Shown: positions 5,049-37,656, counted from the stretch's first letter. The stretch: DNA of 64,000 nt from an uncultured Clostridia bacterium (GCA_948502395.1 CAOPES010000001.1:64957-128956), one strand, 5' to 3'. Translations and numbers: made by a program. Notes: generated by a model from the letters alone, not told the origin.

Positions 5049-6398
5049 TTATTTGTAATAAATTTCTAATTGTTGTTTAAAGAATTTATCATCTTTGATA
5101 GTGCGTAAATGAACATTTTGATTTTTGTTGACAAGTTTACGAACTTCCCATAATCCTAATCCAGTATGATTTTCTTTGCCAGAAATACCTTTTTCAAAAA
5201 TCTTTTCTGTATCAACTGTTTTATCAGCATATGTATTTTCTACGATTAATAACTGAGTATGATTTTTAGTGTCGTTTCTAAATATTAGATTTATAATTTT
5301 TTCTTCACACTCTGAACTTGCTTCAATAGCATTATCTAATAGAATTCCTAATATTCTTGCAAATTCGTAAATTTTCATATGTAAGGTATTTAAATCTAAT
5401 AAAAATGTGATATTTACTTTTATATCTTTCGAATCAGCTTCATGATATTTCTTTGTTAACAAGTTATAAATTCCATCATTGTTTACTACTTCTGGGTTTA
5501 AAATATATAAATTATTAACTCTTTCAGAATCATCCACTAATTCAGAGTAATATTTTTCTAAGCCTTTCATGTCATTAGTTTTAATATATCCGCCAATTGT
5601 TGTAACCATATTATCAAAGTCATGTTTAAATGCTCTAACACTATCATGTAATACACGTAATGAATGATTGTATTCTTCCGCACTTTGTAATTTTCTAGTT
5701 GTTAATATCAGTTTAAATGTTCTTGTTAAACCATATATACTAATTGCAAAATAAACTAATAAAGAAATAAAACTCAATAATGTTATAGAAATAGGTAGTT
5801 TATCTACATAGTAAAACAATATCACTGATTGTATAATAATAGCAATTATACCAAAGAATAAGTTAGAAATTATTATTGTTTTATCTTTTCTATCTATATC
5901 TTCTAAGAATTCCAATTTTACGTTTTTATATCTTAATAGAAATATCCCAACTATTGTAAAGGTATATACAACAAACATGTAAATAAATCTGTAAACAGGA
6001 ATAGAATTTAATTGGTAAGTATCTATGTGCAATAGTGTCAAAAAAGGATTTAATATGAAAATACCTATTAGATTAAATACAATTAGAGCTATTGCGTATG
6101 AAACCAGAGCCTTAAAAAATGATTTTTTAAAGATAATACATACAAGAATAATTGCAGTAATATAATTAACAAATACATTAAATGGACTAGGCATAAGTGA
6201 ATTTGCAATTAGTGTAATGCATGATGTTAGAAAAGTATAAATCAATTTCCTACACTTAGAAGAGTTAATATTTGCAATACATATGCAAAGTGACATTATA
6301 AGAAATATTTCGATAAAAGCAGTAGGTATTAGTAATATATTAATCAACCCTTCATTCGGCGTACTTACAGCCATCCATAAATTATTCAAAATTTCCAT
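5049..6398 (-). CDS. agrC: AgrC-like sensor histidine kinase (HPK10 family, GHKL ATPase)
   Basis: 449 aa with about 6 N-terminal TM helices and a C-terminal HATPase_c region (N-box NAIEAS, G-box GLGLW). It overlaps the downstream LytTR regulator gene. Confidence 0.75.
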   Translation of the reverse strand: MEILNNLWMAVSTPNEGLINILLIPTAFIEIFLIMSLCICIANINSSKCRKLIYTFLTSCITLIANSLMPSPFNVFVNYITAIILVCIIFKKSFFKALVSYAIALIVFNLIGIFILNPFLTLLHIDTYQLNSIPVYRFIYMFVVYTFTIVGIFLLRYKNVKLEFLEDIDRKDKTIIISNLFFGIIAIIIQSVILFYYVDKLPISITLLSFISLLVYFAISIYGLTRTFKLILTTRKLQSAEEYNHSLRVLHDSVRAFKHDFDNMVTTIGGYIKTNDMKGLEKYYSELVDDSERVNNLYILNPEVVNNDGIYNLLTKKYHEADSKDIKVNITFLLDLNTLHMKIYEFARILGILLDNAIEASSECEEKIINLIFRNDTKNHTQLLIVENTYADKTVDTEKIFEKGISGKENHTGLGLWEVRKLVNKNQNVHLRTIKDDKFFKQQLEIYYK

Positions 6399-7095
6399 AA
6401 TTTTTAATCACCTCCAATAAATCAGATTTATATTTAGGACCGATATCACAAAAACTATCATCCCTAAAAGTAATAGTTCCAGAAACCGGTTCAATATCCT
6501 TAATCTGCAAAACATTAGCAACACAAGACTTATGACATCTCATATAAAAATCAGGCAACCTATCCTGAAACTTAGCAAAAGAGCTATAAACATCATAATC
6601 ACGAGAAGCAGTATGAAAAACAAGCTTCATACCATCCCTTCTAATATATTGCACTTCATTTGCATCAACAACAGTACTCTTATTATCAAGCTTAATATAC
6701 CTTTTAGGAGTACCATTAACATCATCAAAAAGTCGACAAATAGTCTCAGACAACCTATCATAAGTAATAGGCTTAGCCAAATAATCAAAAGTTTTAAACT
6801 TATAAGCAAGCATAGCATATTCCAAATGACCAGTAGTAAAAATAATATAAGAATCCTTATTTACCTTTCTAATTGCCCTTGCCAAATCCAATCCAGTTTT
6901 ATCAGACTTCAAATTTATATCCAACATAATAACATCAGCTTTATTACCAGTAACAAAGTTAAGCATATCAGAAGAATTTGAAGTCTTATAAGAAACACAA
7001 GCTTCGAAATTATTTTTTGCAAAGATATTTTCTAACATTTTTTCTAGTCTATCCAAAAGACCTAAGTTATCATCACATAAAGCAAAATGTAACAT
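6382..7095 (-). CDS. agrA: LytTR-family response regulator (AgrA-like)
   Basis: 237 aa with an N-terminal receiver domain (CDDN...IMLDINL) and a C-terminal LytTR DNA-binding domain. Confidence 0.85.
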   Translation of the reverse strand: MLHFALCDDNLGLLDRLEKMLENIFAKNNFEACVSYKTSNSSDMLNFVTGNKADVIMLDINLKSDKTGLDLARAIRKVNKDSYIIFTTGHLEYAMLAYKFKTFDYLAKPITYDRLSETICRLFDDVNGTPKRYIKLDNKSTVVDANEVQYIRRDGMKLVFHTASRDYDVYSSFAKFQDRLPDFYMRCHKSCVANVLQIKDIEPVSGTITFRDDSFCDIGPKYKSDLLEVIKNYGNFE

Positions 7096-7702
7096 ACAAT
7101 TTTCTCCCCTTCAAAATAAATATAATATAAAAAGACAGGAAACGAGATAATTCGACAAAAATAAAAAAATTACCTTATTTTTCCAGTCAATACAATAATA
7201 TAATCCAAAATCTGCATATTGTCAATATTTATTTACAAAATTATCCAATTCTTAAAACAAACAGTATCACTACGATTTAGGAACTAATACTATAAATATC
7301 ATCAATCAAGATAACATAAAGTTTTGAGAATTACATTATACATCATAATTTACATAAAATCAAGAGCTGCCGAAAAAAGTCGATGAAAAGTTGAAAAAAA
7401 TTAAATAAAAAGATTGAAAAAATATATAAAATCTGATATATTAATAAATGTGCAGATTATATAGAATTTTTTGTATATAAAAGCATTATAACATTTTTAT
7501 TAATGCTAAAATCTGTATTAATTCTAATTTAAATTCGAGAAAATTTTTATCGAAACAAAAACTCAAAAAGCAAATAAAAATAAGAAAAAAGGTGATAAAA
7601 AAAGAAAAATAAAGCAAAGACAGAAAACAAAGATGTTTTTACTAATAAAGAAATATTGACAATAGAATAAAAATATATTAAAATGAAAGCGAGGAATAAA
7701 AA

Positions 7703-31257: not shown

Positions 31258-32577
31258 TTGTTTAAAACAATAAAAAACGCGTTAAAGACACCTGATGTAA
31301 GAAAAAGATTATTATATACATTGTTATTAATAGTAATATTCAGATTAGGATGCTATATAACAGTACCAGGAGTAAATAGTGTAGCATTAAACGAGGCTAT
31401 GGGAGGAACAAACGGAATTGCAGGATTAATAGATATGATATCAGGAGGAGCTTTCTCAAGATTTTCTGTTTTCGCAATGACAATAAGTCCATACATAACA
31501 GCTTCAATTGTTATTCAATTATTAGCAATGATAATTCCATCTTTAGAAAAATTAACAAAAGAAGGTGGAGAAGAAGGAAGAAAGAAGATAAATAGATATA
31601 CAAAATTCTTAACAATAATACTTGCTGTTGTAGAAGGTATAGGTATTTATCTATCATACAAATCTACAGGAATATTTGTAGACAACACATTCTTAACAGG
31701 GCTACTAGTAGTAACAGGACTTGTAGCAGGTACATCAGTACTAATGTGGTTAGGTGAAGAAATCACAAACAAGGGAATTGGTAATGGAATATCATTATTA
31801 ATTTTCATAGGAATCATATCTAGATTACCAAGCGGAGTAGTAACAGTTTGGAATCTAATAATGACAAGCACAGGATTTAGCACAACAGGATTACTAACAG
31901 CAATAGGAGTTATAATCGGAGCAATAATCTTAGTAGCAGGAGTTGTATTCGTACAACAAGCAGAAAGAAGAGTTCCAGTACAATACTCTAAAAAAGTAGT
32001 AGGAAGAAAAATGGTAGGTGCACAAAGCACACACATTCCATTAAAACTTGCTATGGCAGGAGTAATGCCAGTAATCTTTGCAAGCAGCTTTATGACATTC
32101 CCAGCTATGATTATACAAATATTTGTACAAGATATAGCAAATCAAACAGGATTTTTAGCAGGGTTATATAAATTCTCAATCGCTACATCAACATCAAGTG
32201 TAGGATGGGGATACTCTCTAGCAAACGCACTTGTTTATTTACTATTAATCGTAGCATTCACATTTTTCTATACTTATGCAACATTCAACCCAGCAGAAGT
32301 ATCAAATAATATTAAGAAAAATGGTGGATTTATTCCAGGAATTAGAGCTGGAAAACCAACAACAGAATACTTATCATCAATCATATCAAAACTAACATGG
32401 TTTGGTGGACTATTCTTAGCAGTAATTGCTATACTTCCAATGTTATTAAGATTTACAAATCTAAACATAGCATTTGGTGGTACATCAATACTAATCGTTG
32501 TAGGAGTTGCATTAGAAACTGTTCAACAATTAGAATCTCAATTAGCAATGAGACACTATAAAGGATTCTTAGAATAA
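31258..32577 (+). CDS. secY: preprotein translocase subunit SecY (TTG start)
   Basis: 439 aa with 10 TM helices, synteny, and the GG.NGIS/IFAGI-type regions. Confidence 0.9.
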   Translation: MFKTIKNALKTPDVRKRLLYTLLLIVIFRLGCYITVPGVNSVALNEAMGGTNGIAGLIDMISGGAFSRFSVFAMTISPYITASIVIQLLAMIIPSLEKLTKEGGEEGRKKINRYTKFLTIILAVVEGIGIYLSYKSTGIFVDNTFLTGLLVVTGLVAGTSVLMWLGEEITNKGIGNGISLLIFIGIISRLPSGVVTVWNLIMTSTGFSTTGLLTAIGVIIGAIILVAGVVFVQQAERRVPVQYSKKVVGRKMVGAQSTHIPLKLAMAGVMPVIFASSFMTFPAMIIQIFVQDIANQTGFLAGLYKFSIATSTSSVGWGYSLANALVYLLLIVAFTFFYTYATFNPAEVSNNIKKNGGFIPGIRAGKPTTEYLSSIISKLTWFGGLFLAVIAILPMLLRFTNLNIAFGGTSILIVVGVALETVQQLESQLAMRHYKGFLE

Positions 32578-32580
32578 AAT

Positions 32581-32682
32581 AAAAATTGCCAGAAGGGACG
32601 GACCTTTTTGGCAATTTTTTGCCACTGGGGACGGACCTTTTTGGCAAAAAATTGCCAAAAAGGTCCGTCCCCAGTGGCAAGA
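32581..32682. repeat. long perfect palindrome / GGGGACGGACC repeat element (probable strong terminator)
   Basis: Sequence gccactggggacggacctttttggcaaaaaattgccaaaaaggtccgtccccagtggc with flanking partial copies. Related copies occur at 47425-47512, 61657-61712 and 42363-42400. Confidence 0.75.
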
Positions 32683-32758
32683 TTTTTACGTTTTAGTCTA
32701 TTGAAAAAAAAGAAAATTTATGATAATATAATAGGCAAATAAAACCAAAAAAAAGGGG

Positions 32759-33121
32759 ATGTGTAGAAAAATGGATCTACAAGAAGCAAGCAAAGAATTA
32801 AACATTGATTATAATGCTGCGCTAACTAGATTTGGCGGTTCAGAAGCAATATATCAACGTTTTTTAAAAAGATTTTTACAAGAAAATACTTACAATGAAC
32901 TAGAACAAGCATGGGAAAAAGGCGACTACGAAGAAATTGAAAAAAAAGCACACACACTAAAAGGAGTAGCAGGAAATCTAAGTCTAGAAAATTTATTTTC
33001 TATTAGCAATGAACTTGTACAAACAATAAGAAACAAACAATATGAAAACACACAAGAAATCTATCAAAGATTGCAAGAAGACTATAAACACACTATAACA
33101 GTAATTGAAAATATAAATTAA
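32759..33121 (+). CDS. Hpt (histidine phosphotransfer) domain protein
   Basis: 120 aa with an HTLKGVAGNLSLENL motif (H..KG....G). The alternative start is ATG 32771. Confidence 0.65.
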   Translation: MCRKMDLQEASKELNIDYNAALTRFGGSEAIYQRFLKRFLQENTYNELEQAWEKGDYEEIEKKAHTLKGVAGNLSLENLFSISNELVQTIRNKQYENTQEIYQRLQEDYKHTITVIENIN

Positions 33122-33137
33122 TGAAAGGGTGGAAAAA

Positions 33138-35660
33138 ATGCAAAAAATAAGAAAAGAAATAGATAGAAAAAATCACAAATTTTTGATAACAGCTTTTTTA
33201 TTAGTTGGGTTTATAATAGGTGCAGTCCTTTTAATAACTGCAAGTGGGCAATTTACAAATAGTTTAGAAGATATGGGAGGAGAAATACCACAAAAAATAA
33301 AATCAACACAAGAGACATATCTTAGAAAAAATGAAGCATTACTAAAAACGGTAGCAGTAAAAATACAAGAATTAAAAGAAGAAAATAGAAGAAATATAAA
33401 TAAAGACCAATTAGAAAAAGTTATTAACAATTATGGAAAAATATTAGAAGTAGACAATGCAAAAATATATGCAGTAATAGATAATAAATATTATACTGCT
33501 GATAACCAAGAAAACGAACAAGATTATACTAAAACAGAATGGTACCAAAAAGTTAAAGAAACAAATAATGGTGAAATAATATACACAAACGCTAAATATT
33601 CTAGCCAAACAAAAGAGCCAATAGTAACAGCAGCGATGAAAATAGCAGGCACAAATGATATGTTAGCAATAGATATTTTCCCAGAACGAATAGCAACATG
33701 GTCAGATATAGAAATATTCCCTAAGGGTACAAGTTACTACATAACAGATGCAGCAGGAAATATAATACACCAAGGTGATAGTGAGCAAAACACAAAAACA
33801 AACCAAGAAGAGAAACACATAGATGAAATATATTCAAAATTAAAAATTAAAGAAGAAGAAATTGTTAATTTATCTTCACAAGGCGAGAGAATAAGCTCAA
33901 AAGCAGGATTATACACAATAGAAACATATAATGGCTGGAAAATTCTTGTGAAAACATCATATGGAGATATGTTAAACAGCACCAGAGTTATATTAATTGC
34001 TTATTATAGCACAACTGTACTATTCTCAATCTTAATATTATATTTAGCATTTTCAGAAAGAAGAGCAGAAAAAGGAAAATCATTATACTCAAGAATAACA
34101 AATGTGCTAAGTGACTCATATTATGCACTTTACTTAGTAGACTTTGAAAAAGAAGAATACACAATACTAAAAGGTTCAGAATATATACAATCTATTCCAC
34201 AAACAGGAAACTACAACTCATTTGTTGAGTTTACTCAAAATATAATGGAAAAAGAAGCATACGAAGAATTTAAAGAAACATTCTCAATAGAAAATATACG
34301 TAGATTAGTAAGAAATAACGTAAAAAGCTTTGGTGGAGATTTTAGAAGAGCATTTAACAGTGAATTTAAATGGGTAAATGTTAGAATGTTATATAGCGAA
34401 GAATATGTAAGAAAAAATAGAACAGAAGTTATATTTGCATTCCAAGACGCAGATGCAAGAAAAGAGAAAGAACTAGAAGAAAAAGAAGTTTTAAGAGAAT
34501 CACTTACAGCAATGAGATCAGCAACACAAACCAAAAACAGATTTTTCTCAAATATGTCTCATGATATGAGAACACCATTAAACGCAATTATAAACTTCTC
34601 TAACATGGCAATATCACAACCAGACAACAAAGAAAGAGTAATGGACTATTTAAGAAAAATAAACATATCAAGTTCACAATTATTAGAACTTATAAACAAC
34701 ATACTAGAAGTTTCTAGAATTGAAGAAAATATGCCATTAATCACAAAAAATCAATTTAATATTGCAAAATCATTAGAAGATACACTTATGGTATTTAAAG
34801 AACAAGCATTTATACAACAGAAGAACTTTGAAATTGAATGCAACATAAAACATGACTATGTTTTAAGCGACTGGGGAAAAATAAGACAAATTATAAATAA
34901 CATAATATCAAATGCGTTAAAATACACAAGAAAAGGTGGAAATGTACGTGTTGAAATAAATGAAATTGAAGGTAAATTCGTTTCTAAATATACATTCAGA
35001 ATAGTAGACGACGGAATTGGAATGAGTAAAGAATTCTTGAAAAAGATATATGTACCATTTGAAAGAGAAACTAGATTCCACTCAGAAGAAATGAATGGAA
35101 CAGGTCTAGGTATGGTAATTGTACAAAACAATGTACAAACATTAAATGGACAAATAGAAATAAACAGCGAACCAGGAAAAGGTAGCGAGATATATATTGT
35201 ATTACCACTAGAAACAATAAAAGAAATAGAAGAAGAAAATAAAGATGAAAGCAAAGAATATTTACAAGAACTAAAAGGCAAAAGAATTTTACTTGTAGAA
35301 GACAATGAGTTAAATATGGAAATTGCAACAGAAATACTTGAAATGCAAGGAGTAAAAATAACACAAGCATTTGACGGAAAACAAGCAGTAGACATATTTA
35401 GAAACAGTGTAGAAGGATATTTTGACGCAATATTAATGGACGTACAAATGCCTGTTATGGACGGATATGAAGCAACATCATGTATTAGAAAATTACCAAG
35501 AAGAGACGCAAGAAGCGTAGTAATATTAGCAGTTACAGCAAATGCCTTTGCAGATGATATAATTCAAGCAGAAAAAGCTGGAATGAACGAACATATATCA
35601 AAACCAATAGACTTCAAAGAATTACAAAAAGCATTAACAAAGTTTATGAAGAAAGGATAG
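33138..35660 (+). CDS. hybrid sensor histidine kinase / response regulator (two TM helices flanking an extracytoplasmic sensor domain; HisKA-HATPase-REC)
   Basis: H-box FFSNMSHDMRTPLNAI. GHKL N, G1 and G2 boxes (NALKYT, DDGIGM, GTGLGM). A C-terminal receiver domain (LLVEDNELN...ILMDVQMPVMDG...KPI) is also present. Confidence 0.85.
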   Translation: MQKIRKEIDRKNHKFLITAFLLVGFIIGAVLLITASGQFTNSLEDMGGEIPQKIKSTQETYLRKNEALLKTVAVKIQELKEENRRNINKDQLEKVINNYGKILEVDNAKIYAVIDNKYYTADNQENEQDYTKTEWYQKVKETNNGEIIYTNAKYSSQTKEPIVTAAMKIAGTNDMLAIDIFPERIATWSDIEIFPKGTSYYITDAAGNIIHQGDSEQNTKTNQEEKHIDEIYSKLKIKEEEIVNLSSQGERISSKAGLYTIETYNGWKILVKTSYGDMLNSTRVILIAYYSTTVLFSILILYLAFSERRAEKGKSLYSRITNVLSDSYYALYLVDFEKEEYTILKGSEYIQSIPQTGNYNSFVEFTQNIMEKEAYEEFKETFSIENIRRLVRNNVKSFGGDFRRAFNSEFKWVNVRMLYSEEYVRKNRTEVIFAFQDADARKEKELEEKEVLRESLTAMRSATQTKNRFFSNMSHDMRTPLNAIINFSNMAISQPDNKERVMDYLRKINISSSQLLELINNILEVSRIEENMPLITKNQFNIAKSLEDTLMVFKEQAFIQQKNFEIECNIKHDYVLSDWGKIRQIINNIISNALKYTRKGGNVRVEINEIEGKFVSKYTFRIVDDGIGMSKEFLKKIYVPFERETRFHSEEMNGTGLGMVIVQNNVQTLNGQIEINSEPGKGSEIYIVLPLETIKEIEEENKDESKEYLQELKGKRILLVEDNELNMEIATEILEMQGVKITQAFDGKQAVDIFRNSVEGYFDAILMDVQMPVMDGYEATSCIRKLPRRDARSVVILAVTANAFADDIIQAEKAGMNEHISKPIDFKELQKALTKFMKKG

Positions 35661-35664
35661 CCAT

Positions 35665-36634
35665 ATGGAAAAAAATCATGAACTAAAAAGATATAATATA
35701 AAGCCTATCAGAGAACTTACACAAGTTGAAATAGAGCAAATTGCAAGAGAAGTTATAAAGAAAATAGAGACAATAATGGTTGATTTTGACGGAAACTATA
35801 TGTATGAGCATATCGTAAAATCAAAAATGTATTTAGCAAAAATACCAGAACAATATACAAATGTTAATTATATAGTTTCTACAAACTCAATTTATATTAG
35901 AGATGAAGAAAACATAAAAGAAATAGATGAAATAATGTTTCATGAAATAATTCACTACATACAATGCAACCAAGAAAACAACATAGGGGCAATGCCAGAA
36001 CAAATGGGACTATGCAAATTACACGGATATATAATAACTGGCCTTGCCATAAACGAGGTTGCTATACAACTAATAATTTCACTTGTATTTAACAACAAAC
36101 AAGAAAACACAAACTACTTTGGAATAAAAGTAAAAGCAATTCAAAATAAATCTTTCCCAATCTTGTGCGCATTATTACAGCAAATAACATATGTACTAGG
36201 TTACAAAGAATTGTTGACAAGTATATTAGAAAATACAGACGATTTTAAAGAAGCTTTTGAAAAATTTGCAGGGAAGAAATCATATGACTTTTTAAGAAAT
36301 TCATTTGACAAAATGATGAATGCAAGAGACAAAATTGCTAGCGATAGAAGAGCTTTAAAAAAAGAGAAAAACATAAAAAATAGAAGAATGATTGAAAAAA
36401 GAATAAAAATATACACTCGGAGAAATCCAAAATCACTTTTTAGCAGTACAAAAATTGTGCTATACAGAATATTTTAAACCATTGTTTAAAAAAGTAAAAA
36501 ATAAGGAAGATTTAAAAAAATTAAAAGAAGAAATTCTTAGGTATGATAGTCATATAGGTCAAGTAGGCGAAAAAAATGAATTTGTAATTTATACTCAAAA
36601 ACAAATTCAAAAATTAGATAAAAAATTTAAATAA
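35665..36634 (+). pseudogene. HExxH-motif protein (putative zinc metallopeptidase-like), interrupted by a +1 frameshift at about 36418
   Basis: The 270-aa ORF (35665-36477) contains MFHEIIHYIQ. Removing the single C at 36418 (actCggag) extends the reading frame to a stop at 36632-36634. Confidence 0.5.
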
Positions 36635-36809
36635 ATATATTTAGTATTGTTAATACAGCTCCAGCAAATATGGATTTGAAACTAACTGTTAAGCTTTTGT
36701 TGAATACTTTGTATGTTGTTTGAATTTGATATTCTTTTCTGATTGTTAATGCTAAACAGTTATTTTGGAAAAGAGCTTGATTTGTTTCATCTTCATATAC
36801 TAGTGACAT
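36627..36809 (-). CDS. hypothetical small protein (60 aa)
   Basis: Minus-strand ORF MSLVYEDETNQALF... preceded by RBS ggaggtataaat. The track ORF 36627-37103 is an over-extension antisense to the adk start. Confidence 0.3.
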   Translation of the reverse strand: MSLVYEDETNQALFQNNCLALTIRKEYQIQTTYKVFNKSLTVSFKSIFAGAVLTILNIFI

Positions 36810-36987
36810 ATTTATACCTCCATCTATTTTTGCTTTACAAAAATAATTATAACATATAATGATATAAACTGTAAATATGTGATTGACAAAATAGTTCAAA
36901 TGAGCTAAAATATAAATGTTAAAAAAAGGAATTAAGCCTCTAACAAAATTAGGGGCAAAATTTTTTGACAAGGAGGATATAAAAAAT

Positions 36988-37656
36988 ATGAATATTATCA
37001 TGTTAGGAGCACCAGGAACAGGGAAAGGAACAATTGCGGGAATTTTAGAGAAAAAACTAAAAATACCACAAGTATCAACAGGAGACATTTTTAGAAAACA
37101 CATGAAAGAAGGAACAGAACTAGGAAAGCTAGCAGAAAGCTATATATCAAAAGGAGCATTAGTTCCAGATGATGTAACAATAGGCTTAGTAGAAGACAGA
37201 CTAAAAGAAAAAGACGTACAAAGCGGAATTATACTAGACGGTTTCCCAAGAACAGTAAAACAAGCCGAAGAACTAGATAAAATGTTAGAATCAGAAAATA
37301 AAAAAGTAGATATAGTAATAAATTTAACAACACCAGAAGAAGAAATAATAGAAAGAATAGTAAATAGAAGAGTATGCTCAAACCAAGAATGTAAAACAAT
37401 TTTCAACTTACAACTAAACCCACCAAAACAAGAAGGAATATGCGACAAATGCGGTTCAGAGCTAGTGCAAAGAAAAGATGATACAGTAGAAACTGTAAAA
37501 TCAAGATTAAATAGCTATTTTGAGCAAACAAGCCCACTTGTAGAATATTACGAGAAAAAAGGAAAGTTATATTCAGCAGTAGTTAGCAAAAGTATCAACA
37601 AATTGGGGAAAGATGTAGCAGAAGACGTAGTTAAATATATAGAAGAAAATTTTTAA
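36988..37656 (+). CDS. adk: adenylate kinase
   Basis: MNIIMLGAPGTGKGT with the zinc lid C..C...C..C. The start follows RBS caaggagga. Confidence 0.95.
   Translation: MNIIMLGAPGTGKGTIAGILEKKLKIPQVSTGDIFRKHMKEGTELGKLAESYISKGALVPDDVTIGLVEDRLKEKDVQSGIILDGFPRTVKQAEELDKMLESENKKVDIVINLTTPEEEIIERIVNRRVCSNQECKTIFNLQLNPPKQEGICDKCGSELVQRKDDTVETVKSRLNSYFEQTSPLVEYYEKKGKLYSAVVSKSINKLGKDVAEDVVKYIEENF

Follow-up and report, generated by a model that had tools for sequence, protein, structure and literature searches.

A 64-kb stretch of low-GC DNA (~30%) from an uncultured Clostridia bacterium, called the window here in its full length, carries the S10-spc-alpha block of ribosomal genes. Between secY and adk this block is interrupted by an interval of ~4.2 kb that encodes an Hpt protein, a hybrid histidine kinase of 840 amino acids (aa), a frameshifted HExxH protein and a convergent 60-aa protein. 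We put the probability at roughly 60% that the interval is an autonomous four-gene cassette, inserted in the secY-adk spacer of the ancestor of a shallow clade, in which a phosphorelay is combined with a recruited HExxH/small-protein module and a gene read by +1 frameshifting. The Hpt, kinase and HExxH genes would then form a transcriptionally autonomous operon whose 3' end is overlapped by the convergent small gene. The clade consists of uncultured low-GC gut Clostridia, and the spacer that received the insertion would already have held a terminator and a promoter. The position beside the ribosomal genes looks incidental.

Gene content and distribution of the cassette

The insert had previously been described from the sequence alone as a Hpt gene, a hybrid kinase gene and a frameshifted HExxH gene. 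All three were recovered, but the inventory was not complete, as a convergent fourth gene of 60 aa on the minus strand had been overlooked. Within the operon the genes are closely spaced, with 16 nt between the Hpt and kinase genes and 4 nt between the kinase and HExxH genes. The portion of the insert common to copies elsewhere extends from about 32698 to 36910. The cassette contains the following features:

32771..33121, plus strand: Hpt protein, 116 aa; Pfam PF01627 at E = 8.5e-10; motif HTLKGVAGNLS
33138..35660, plus strand: hybrid histidine kinase, 840 aa; first transmembrane segment (TM1), dCache/PDC-like sensor, TM2, linker, HisKA, HATPase_c, receiver
35665..36477, plus strand: HExxH open reading frame (ORF) in frame 0, 270 aa; first 251 residues homologous to relatives of 322-324 aa
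36415..36423, plus strand: frameshift site ACT CGG AGA; 1 extra nt compared to cassette copies elsewhere
36419..36634, plus strand: C-terminal 71 codons of the HExxH gene in the +1 frame; under purifying selection by codon-column counts
36627..36809, minus strand: gene of the 60-aa small protein, with its own ribosome-binding site and predicted promoter; 8-nt overlap with the 3' end of the HExxH gene

The stand-alone Hpt protein with its HTLKGVAGNLS motif was confirmed by Pfam (39.2 bits at a cut-off of 24.6), and H61, K64 and G65 of the HxxKG motif are invariant in four aligned cassette copies. Likewise the domains expected for the kinase were found, with HisKA (61 bits), HATPase_c (84 bits) and Response_reg (85 bits) each scoring above cut-off. 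Its length, however, is 840 aa counted from an ATG and not the 843 aa first given. The ATG-start form is on record exactly in 24 independent contigs from metagenomes or metagenome-assembled genomes, every time in the secY-adk context, and an exact database look-up of the 843-aa GTG-start form returned no record. The phospho-accepting H475 lies in the motif SHDMRTPLN, the receiver contains ILMDVQMP, and the catalytic motifs of kinase, receiver and Hpt protein are all intact. All phospho-accepting residues are present. The earlier description of a phosphorelay-type module composed of HK-REC and Hpt is supported.

Two hydrophobic segments of the kinase (residues 12-40 and 282-305) flank a putative sensor region of ~245 aa. 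In the window protein this region reached 22.2 bits against PF22673, which is under the cut-off of 27; for kinase homologues at 94-96% identity the precomputed annotation gives PF02743 dCache_1. The sensor domain is the fastest-evolving part of the kinase, with 26-59% identity between copies as compared to 62-88% for the receiver. Among the NCBIfam equivalogs TorS gave the best score (238 bits at a cut-off of 676), and BarA, LuxQ, ArcB and RcsC were also far below their cut-offs. Since this holds for all equivalog scores, the kinase is not an orthologue of any named system. Kinase and Hpt protein are ordinary members of known domain families. A PADLOC search yielded a single weak match, of the receiver domain to SduA (E = 1e-4), and none for the Hpt, HExxH or small protein. 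In the phosphorelay proposed here, an extracytoplasmic ligand would bind the fast-evolving dCache-like domain and control autophosphorylation of the kinase. Phosphate would then pass from H475 to the receiver Asp, from there to His61 of the Hpt protein and finally to a response regulator encoded elsewhere.

The arrangement of Hpt, kinase and HExxH genes with the small gene on the opposite strand is not confined to the ribosomal gene block. We found it at five unrelated chromosomal loci outside secY-adk, at one of them (L011) without the Hpt gene. Percentages give the identity of the kinase:

L007: 72%, cassette complete, between TauE and DUF2752/sigma-factor genes
L008: 64%, cassette complete, between large serine recombinases and beside a restriction-modification system
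L009: 52%, cassette complete, adjoining a BcrAD/DUF2229 gene
L104: 49%, cassette complete, between HU and sortase/adhesin genes
L011: 47%, Hpt gene missing, near ParAB, sortase and SpaA pilin genes
L012: 40%, cassette absent, kinase alone

Mobility of the cassette is read solely from these variable locations and from the serine recombinases flanking the L008 copy.

For a comparison of the secY-adk junction one genome per GTDB species was searched with the Adk protein of the window. This gave 80 relatives with 56-96% identical Adk, all of them from uncultured gut Clostridia such as Clostridium sp. CAG:575, CAG:343 and Candidatus Merdicola. The cassette was present at secY-adk in only two of the 80 (L013, Adk 96%; L014, Adk 95%), and in the next closest genomes (Adk 81-84%, SecY 87-92%) the spacer measures 151-368 nt. 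When considering the 71 relatives that have both genes on the contig, the spacer amounts to just 39-444 nt in 63, so that the separation of secY and adk by a large insert, estimated before at about 4.3 kb, was borne out. This synteny confirmed the insertion and showed that, rather than being universal in the family, it is confined to a shallow clade comprising the window, L096, L010/L013, L014 and L093/L094, with kinase identities of 93-100%.

Seven genomes, L067 among them, carry other insertions of 0.5-2.7 kb at the same site; of the other six, whose ORFs were inspected, five hold unrelated ORFs and L065 has a short ORF only. Because sister species hold different and unrelated cargo there, we regard the secY-adk spacer as a recurrent landing site. 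It looks like an insertion hot spot, at which the insertion of the cassette is specific to the shallow clade. The cargo of the relatives (L034 4969-6891; L063 5195-6913; L050 6576-6929; L033 6179-6577; L074 6145-6780) consists of a 640-aa leucine-rich-repeat surface protein with a prepilin-type N-terminus, a HicB-like protein, a membrane-anchored protein, and a 423-aa protein together with a 117-aa protein, the latter of which is found on its own in L050 as well.

The split HExxH gene and its convergent partner

Full-length relatives of the HExxH protein have 322-324 aa and are encoded in a single frame. In the window the frame is interrupted by one extra nucleotide, which lies outside any homopolymer run. 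The frameshift reported earlier is thus real, a fixed 1-nt insertion common to all diverged copies of the lineage. The window, L010, L014 and L093 read ACTCGGAGAAAT, where L007, L008, L009 and L011 read AC-CAAAGAAAT or similar. The shift site ACTCGGAGA is identical in the four lineages with the lesion, and L096, 93% identical to the 270-aa frame-0 ORF, is compatible with the same frameshifted state. Frame 0 continues for 18 codons past the site up to the stop codon at 36475-36477, and the homologous 71 codons go on in the +1 frame. A sequencing error was ruled out, as there is no homopolymer and the insertion recurs in independently assembled lineages whose kinases are 93-100% identical. A separate start for a 59-aa tail ORF was ruled out as well, since the candidate TTG is TTA in L010 and L014.

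We then scored the variable codon columns of the four lineages with the lesion as synonymous-only or amino-acid-changing, which gave the following counts:

Tail, tail frame: 15 synonymous-only, 9 changing
Tail, second frame: 3 synonymous-only, 23 changing
Tail, third frame: 3 synonymous-only, 22 changing
57 nt after the site, tail frame: 5 synonymous-only, 0 changing
57 nt after the site, head frame: 1 synonymous-only, 4 changing
Intact head, own frame: 62 synonymous-only, 17 changing

The synonymous excess in the tail frame is significant (Fisher p = 1.2e-5) and begins right at the shift site. Between the tail and the intact head there is no significant difference in this ratio (p = 0.18). 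Furthermore, the site contains the rarest sense codon of the window: of the 17,231 codons, 4 are CGG, the one at the shift site included. The shift falls at this codon and the tail evolves as coding sequence, which makes the site a candidate for programmed +1 frameshifting. The other three CGG codons fall in the ORFs 46930-47406 (two) and 47573-49297 (one, close to its end). Among the arginine codons the window shows an extreme bias, with AGA (541), CGT (48), AGG (47), CGA (13), CGC (8) and CGG (4).

These counts also bear on the possibility that the HExxH gene is a pseudogene in this lineage, and that the cassette is decaying, with a 270-aa stub or nothing being made and no frameshifting taking place. 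The 1-nt insertion does disrupt the frame, gene callers give a 270-aa product everywhere, and no slippery heptamer, homopolymer or upstream Shine-Dalgarno-like stimulator at canonical distance is present. However, four lineages have inherited the same lesion and their tail-frame substitutions are nevertheless mostly synonymous (15/9, and 5/0 in the first 57 nt), in a proportion not significantly unlike that of the intact head (62/17). In addition the TTG needed for a separate 59-aa ORF is not kept in L010 and L014, and ACTCGGAGA is identical in all four lineages at the rarest codon. Decay of the gene is in our view rather unlikely. From the pattern of substitutions the full-length HExxH protein is probably still made by +1 ribosomal frameshifting. 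On the simplest account ribosomes would pause at CGG and continue from GGA; the product would read ...IKIYT-G-EIQNHF..., with T-K-E at this place in the relatives. The candidate shift window is ATATACACTCGGAGAAATC and the predicted junction peptide of the frameshifted product is ...IKIYTGEIQNHFLAVQK.

The protein encoded by this gene belongs to a family of its own. With clusters defined at 50% identity, a word-indexed search found 31 clusters and an exhaustive profile search 294 at E <= 1e-3 and 108 at E <= 1e-30, with members typically of 320-390 aa; neighbourhoods were examined for 15 loci of roughly 300 clusters. Conserved positions are H93, E94, H97, Q100, G115, N130, E131, S186 and F194. 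Among these H93, E94, H97, N130 and E131 are invariant in 28 family sequences, and in a set of 50 diverse members conservation reaches at least 90% for E94, H97, N130 and E131. An HExxH motif followed ~33 residues downstream by NE on the next long helix is the signature of gluzincins (MA(E)), in which a Glu downstream of HExxH serves as third zinc ligand. None of the 50 diverse members matches a Pfam family, and Pfam, NCBIfam, PADLOC and PHROGs contained no usable family for either the HExxH or the small protein. The nearest library matches were a PHROG of unknown function (E = 0.0011) and an NCBIfam entry far below its cut-off (E = 0.015). Profile searches of PDB sequences with the 28-member and the 50-member profile found no match.

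In the confident AlphaFold2 (AF2) model of the HExxH protein (pLDDT 91.5, pTM 0.88) the N-terminal domain is of alpha/beta type, and the C-terminal part consists of long helices packed in a bundle. Compared to the PDB, the full-length model gave only BAR-domain and coiled-coil or long-helix noise, and the N-terminal 204 aa were therefore modelled separately (pLDDT 83.5). The top Foldseek matches of this model are nearly all zinc metallopeptidases, namely selecase, jannalysin, anthrax lethal factor, the M48-like 3c37, LasB, IrrE/PprI and collagenases G and H, none of them significant (E = 0.3-8, TM-score 0.2-0.48). The matches in a viral structure library were enriched in metallopeptidases too, likewise without significance. 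There is no signal peptide, and the one weakly hydrophobic helix corresponds to the predicted active-site 'glutamate helix'. Based on motif and model, the HExxH protein is probably a divergent minimal gluzincin, its membership in any curated peptidase family not being established.

The convergent small gene is the most conserved gene of the cassette. Its product is 72-92% identical across cassettes, as compared to 47-72% for the kinase, 47-72% for the Hpt protein and 58-83% for the HExxH protein in the same cassettes. Differences among the copies are distributed over codon positions 1, 2 and 3 as 162:80:294, and between the window and L010 there are 11 synonymous changes and 1 non-synonymous change. 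As the differences concentrate on third codon positions, the gene is real and strongly constrained. The protein has an acidic N-terminus, a conserved NNCLALTIRKEY motif, an invariant FQNNCLALTIRKEY stretch and segments of alternating hydrophobicity, and its C-terminal 16-18 residues are hydrophobic. The overlap with the 3' end of the HExxH gene comprises 8 nt in the window and in four aligned loci, and 11 nt in L104.

A convergent small ORF also adjoins all seven distant HExxH relatives from metagenome loci (7/7; 28-31% identity). The last ~46 residues of these ORFs follow the pattern TTNCLALTI[KR]EEHKLVAVKNV.LHSLKV.WKV.ASTIALHILK.FF (tblastn E 1e-5 to 3e-9), so that with the shared NCLALTI[KR]xE and a hydrophobic tail their homology to the small gene is recognisable. 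No kinase or Hpt gene was found near any of the seven pairs. Since the distant relatives keep the pair without the kinase, the pair is older than the link to the kinase. By this comparison, HExxH and small gene are an old two-gene module which the Hpt-kinase pair joined only in the subfamily of the window. That the convergent arrangement has been kept down to 28% identity suggests an obligatory functional or antisense relationship. L011 contains a second, diverged small-protein paralogue (7511-7678, minus strand; 47% identity over 44 aa) upstream of the kinase in the place of the Hpt gene. Distant pairs are located directly downstream of very large repeat-rich surface proteins (L098 70-4275, 1401 aa; L099 272-2164; L101 813-2261), and in L011 and L104 the cassette has sortase, SpaA or CLIPPER adhesin genes in its vicinity, which may reflect a recurring association with cell-surface genes.

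A convergent 3'-overlapping arrangement conserved over large distances, a small product with a hydrophobic tail and the position of the cassette on or beside mobile DNA in L008 and L011 would also fit a toxin-antitoxin-like or addiction pair, in which a small membrane-active toxin is checked by antisense transcription or proteolysis and which would make the cassette stable at any site where it inserts. The type I toxin-antitoxin loci txpA/RatA and bsrG/SR4 have a comparable convergent overlapping arrangement. However, the conserved part of the small protein is not just the hydrophobic segment but includes a hydrophilic N-terminal region of 44 aa. Moreover, neither PADLOC nor PHROGs gave a match at E <= 0.001 (the best PHROG, as mentioned, has E = 0.0011 and no assigned function), and most loci of the pair are ordinary chromosomal contexts. 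We consider such a pair highly improbable.

A quorum-sensing unit is a further alternative. In agrBDCA a peptidase, a small precursor and a sensor kinase make up the logic of peptide quorum sensing, and the gene content of the cassette parallels it: the 60-aa protein would be the precursor, the HExxH protein its maturation protease and the extracytoplasmic domain of the kinase the peptide receptor. The small protein has an invariant Cys as well as a hydrophobic C-terminus, and the sensor domain of the kinase evolves fastest. A ligand and its receptor are however expected to diversify together, and here the small protein is 72-92% identical at 26-59% for the sensor. As the one barely changes while the other evolves fastest, the small protein is unlikely to be the ligand of the kinase. 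The HExxH protein is without a signal peptide and its one weakly hydrophobic helix is the predicted 'glutamate helix', the cassette holds no exporter, and the distant relatives keep the HExxH/small pair without any kinase. An agr-like unit has very little probability in our estimate.

In the reading we prefer, that of an autonomous cassette with a recruited module, the HExxH/small-protein pair would have been taken into the kinase operon, most likely as an effector or modulator acting by regulated proteolysis. The small protein would anchor the HExxH protein at the membrane through its hydrophobic tail. Co-expressed with the kinase, the HExxH protein would act on the small protein or would be positioned or inhibited by it at the membrane, and convergent overlapping transcription would let operon and small gene antagonise each other's expression. 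A more specific proposal is that the pair is a regulated-proteolysis module not described before, which in this subfamily has replaced the response regulator as output of the Hpt phosphorelay or controls the kinase at the membrane, with expression in the secY-adk lineage depending on a recently evolved frameshift at CGG. This we regard as quite unlikely. If true, the frameshift would tie the dose of the protease to the availability of tRNA-Arg(CCG) and hence to the translational state.

Transcription of the insert and its relation to adk

The cassette is flanked and accompanied by the following features, among them a cluster of units resembling repetitive extragenic palindromic (REP) sequences:

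31258..32577, plus strand: secY, ORF of 439 aa; Pfam SecY in identical metagenome copies; last gene of the spc block before the insert
32581..32686, no strand assigned: REP-like cluster of three 33-nt units (TTGCCAnnnGGGACGGACCTTTTTGGCAA), two direct and one inverted; two hairpins, then GATTTTTACGTTTT
32701..32729, plus strand: predicted promoter of the cassette operon; TTGAAA, 17 nt, TAATAT, TG extension
36846..36875, minus strand: predicted promoter of the small gene; TTTACA, 18 nt, TATAAT, TG; 11/12 matches
36883..36911, plus strand: predicted adk-facing promoter; TTGACA, 17 nt, TAAAAT; 11/12 matches
36988..37656, plus strand: adk, 222 aa; Pfam ADK; first gene past the insert; called with 222 aa in L093

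For adk an upstream in-frame ATG at 36916 was rejected as an artefact, because the relatives align from MNIIMLGAPG, which places the start at 36988. The predicted operon promoter lies 40 nt upstream of the Hpt gene and is kept in L093 and L007, and its -10 element alone in L008, despite the differing contexts. The -10 element of the small gene (TGTTATAAT) is conserved in 6 of 6 aligned cassette copies from five genomic contexts. The small-gene promoter and the adk-facing promoter are arranged back to back. Homology between the window and L007 extends through the adk-facing promoter to about 36910, and this promoter therefore probably arrived with the cassette.

The native spacers of cassette-free relatives have a hairpin after secY. 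In L017 the spacer contains a predicted terminator and in addition a TTGATA-17-TAAAAT promoter match before adk, so that transcripts reading through from the spc promoter are probably no strict requirement for adk in this genome. The same spacer of 368 nt holds by eye an apparent small Cys-rich ORF (about 6700-6890, minus strand) with a GGAGG ribosome-binding site and a TTTACT-17-TATAAT promoter. Before adk the cassette-free L018 (6060-6100), L019 (6940-6985), L020, L016 and L015 share the motif ...TTTTTATCATGT.TGTTAT...ATGATAAAGATTATT(loop)AATAATCTTAAAACAAAAGTAGAGGAAGTG, with a perfect 9-bp inverted repeat (AAGATTATT / AATAATCTT) just before the ribosome-binding site, which may be a leader or regulatory hairpin. 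It is missing from the window, where cassette-derived sequence takes its place. Between the adk-facing promoter and the ribosome-binding site of adk the window has a weak hairpin (36936-36956, plus strand), GCCTCTAA-CAAAA-TTAGGGGC followed by AAAATTTTTT, which could be a transcript attenuator or, given that GGCAAAATTTTTTGAC next to it is similar to the REP flank GGCAAGATTTTTAC, the degenerate remnant of a REP unit.

According to the sequence-only reading the phosphorelay is embedded in the ribosomal superoperon and possibly couples a signal to the expression of adk-map-infA-rpmJ. Such an integrated unit, coupling an environmental signal to these genes, would be consistent with the physical separation of secY from adk by the insert and with the stability of the arrangement over four lineages (93-100% kinase identity). 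With the adk-facing promoter located in cassette-derived sequence back to back with that of the small gene, regulatory spill-over is possible in principle. Embedding in the superoperon was however not supported, given the predicted hairpins and T-run after secY, the operon's own predicted promoter, the convergent gene and the separate predicted promoter of adk. Coupling to adk-map-infA finds no support for the same reasons and because the cassette occurs at five other, unrelated loci. Furthermore the cassette is without a DNA-binding or RNA-binding output domain, the spacer serves as a general landing site for unrelated cargo, the secY-adk spacer of the cassette-free L017 already contains a predicted terminator and promoter, and the convergent small gene shields adk from read-through of the operon. 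We regard coupling as very unlikely.

The large palindrome after secY had been taken as the upstream boundary of the insert. It proved to be three copies of a dispersed REP-like unit, which also occurs at 47472 and 61668, and thus does not bound the insert. The core GGGACGGACCTTTTTGGCAA is present in 5 copies in the window (three in the cluster, 47472 on the minus and 61668 on the plus strand) with 0 expected by chance, and the copies at 47472-47491 (minus) and 61668-61687 (plus) are likewise intergenic. Each unit forms a small hairpin, and units stand singly or in direct or inverted clusters after genes, in a related species too. The native post-secY hairpins of cassette-free relatives also hold GGGACG...CGTCCC. 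At the RNA level two hairpins are predicted for the cluster (-81.5 kcal/mol, z = -14.8), with a U-rich stretch after them, and the cluster is likely a terminator or 3' stabiliser of secY. An Rfam scan of the cluster gave no match at any family's gathering score; sub-threshold matches to a miRNA family and to rncO were dismissed as chance similarity to a long hairpin.

The cluster differs among sister lineages: secY and the Hpt gene are 193 nt apart in the window, as compared to 125 nt in L093 and 689 nt in L010. In L010 an element of ~500 bp resembling a miniature inverted-repeat transposable element, with terminal inverted repeats of ~85 nt (GCTGCGCTCTCGCGAGATTTCTGACTTGCTGGCCGGGAGCTTTGGTCTGCCATATATATGTGTACATTTTCATGTAGC ...), is inserted inside the REP cluster between secY and the Hpt gene (about 5050-5590); it is absent from the window. 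A REP-like copy is also located upstream of the cassette in L007 (about 2315-2350), where the cassette occupies another locus. Since REP copies are found near both ends of the insert and near the L007 copy, REP-mediated recombination is a candidate mechanism of insertion. Ahead of the adk ribosome-binding site an 18-nt stretch matches a REP flank at 83%; this possible REP remnant was set aside as too weak to use.

Several observations speak against the cassette reading. No terminal response regulator was detected in the cassette or beside any cassette copy, and by phmmer the 64-kb window has no receiver, kinase or Hpt domain beyond those of the cassette. Neither a transposase nor an integrase gene turned up at the insert, and a search of its flanks yielded no direct or inverted repeats beyond chance level that would mark a target-site duplication or terminal repeats. 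All promoters and terminators were predicted from consensus sequences, and the regional promoter count of 26 is no higher than the 25.1 expected from shuffling; the argument for autonomy therefore builds on promoter conservation and not on the scan. At the shift site, as read from the sequence, the P-site ACU cannot re-pair on CUC in the +1 frame, and there is no slippery heptamer, no known stimulator and no Shine-Dalgarno-like element at prfB spacing. The HExxH protein has no significant structural or sequence match (best Foldseek E = 0.3), so that its assignment as a protease relies on the motif and a weak enrichment of matches. Finally, in the small proteins of the distant pairs the hydrophobic tail includes His and Lys and may not span a membrane.

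Comparison with known systems

As the host is uncultured and the conclusions rest on prediction, the immediate impact of these findings is modest. Hybrid kinases are comparatively little studied in Firmicutes, and the cassette gives a hint that a phosphorelay of this group may have an output or control layer of a non-canonical kind. The split HExxH gene, with both halves under selection, is a natural test case for +1 frameshifting driven by a rare codon. The secY-adk case also cautions against inferring function from adjacency to ribosomal operons. We found no description in the literature of this cassette, of an insertion between secY and adk, or of a kinase/Hpt pair that lacks a linked response regulator and is combined with an unannotated gluzincin-like family and a highly conserved small partner.

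Occasional insertions of a few genes in the conserved ribosomal cluster, e.g. tusDCB, bfd-bfr and nrdHEF, are described in the passages of PMC8046335 considered here for Gammaproteobacteria and Bacilli, with duplication, transposition or horizontal transfer proposed as cause. The secY-adk cassette likewise interrupts this highly conserved cluster and adds a further example, at a site and in a class absent from those passages. The cases given there are located between other gene pairs; here the insertion lies between secY and adk in Clostridia, carries signalling cargo and is replaced by varied cargo in sister species.

Among signalling systems, the cassette is closest in layout to the multistep His-Asp-His-Asp phosphorelays LuxQ-LuxU, RcsC-RcsD and Sln1-Ypd1 and the unorthodox kinases TorS, ArcB and BarA. 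It shares the order HisKA-HATPase_c-REC, with the Hpt as a separate polypeptide encoded immediately upstream, and the best NCBIfam similarities of its kinase are to TorS, BarA, LuxQ and ArcB. It differs from the named systems in that no terminal response regulator is linked, that the kinase is operonic with a metalloprotease-like gene and that its host belongs to the uncultured gut Clostridia.

The HExxH protein resembles minimal gluzincins (selecase, jannalysin) and the M48/M56 peptidases (HtpX, BlaR1/MecR1) in its helix-borne HExxH motif with NE ~33 residues on. The predicted N-terminal beta-sheet with 'backing', 'active-site' and 'glutamate' helices corresponds to the zincin layout. Minigluzincins have been linked to the catalytic domains of M48/M56. 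In contrast to these proteins the HExxH protein has a C-terminal long-helix bundle of ~120 aa without counterpart, and it is soluble rather than an integral membrane protein and has an obligate convergent small-protein partner.

Programmed +1 frameshifting at a 'hungry' codon is known from prfB (CUU-UGA) and from yeast Ty3 (GCG-AGU-U). The putative shift in the HExxH gene is alike in that it falls exactly at a very rare A-site codon, CGG, in a strictly conserved site with a selected downstream frame. Because the P-site ACU cannot re-pair, it would have to be Ty3-like, without slippage. Compared to prfB, an upstream Shine-Dalgarno-like stimulator at the corresponding spacing is missing and the shift is deduced from the sequence. 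Moreover the site arose recently in one lineage, all relatives encoding the protein in a single frame.

MgrB and SafA are small membrane proteins that modulate the sensor kinase PhoQ. Like them, the 60-aa protein is tiny, has one hydrophobic segment and is encoded beside a sensor kinase. Its hydrophobic segment, however, is at the extreme C-terminus and hence leaves no extracytoplasmic part, its sequence has no similarity to MgrB or SafA, and its older, primary partner is the HExxH protein.

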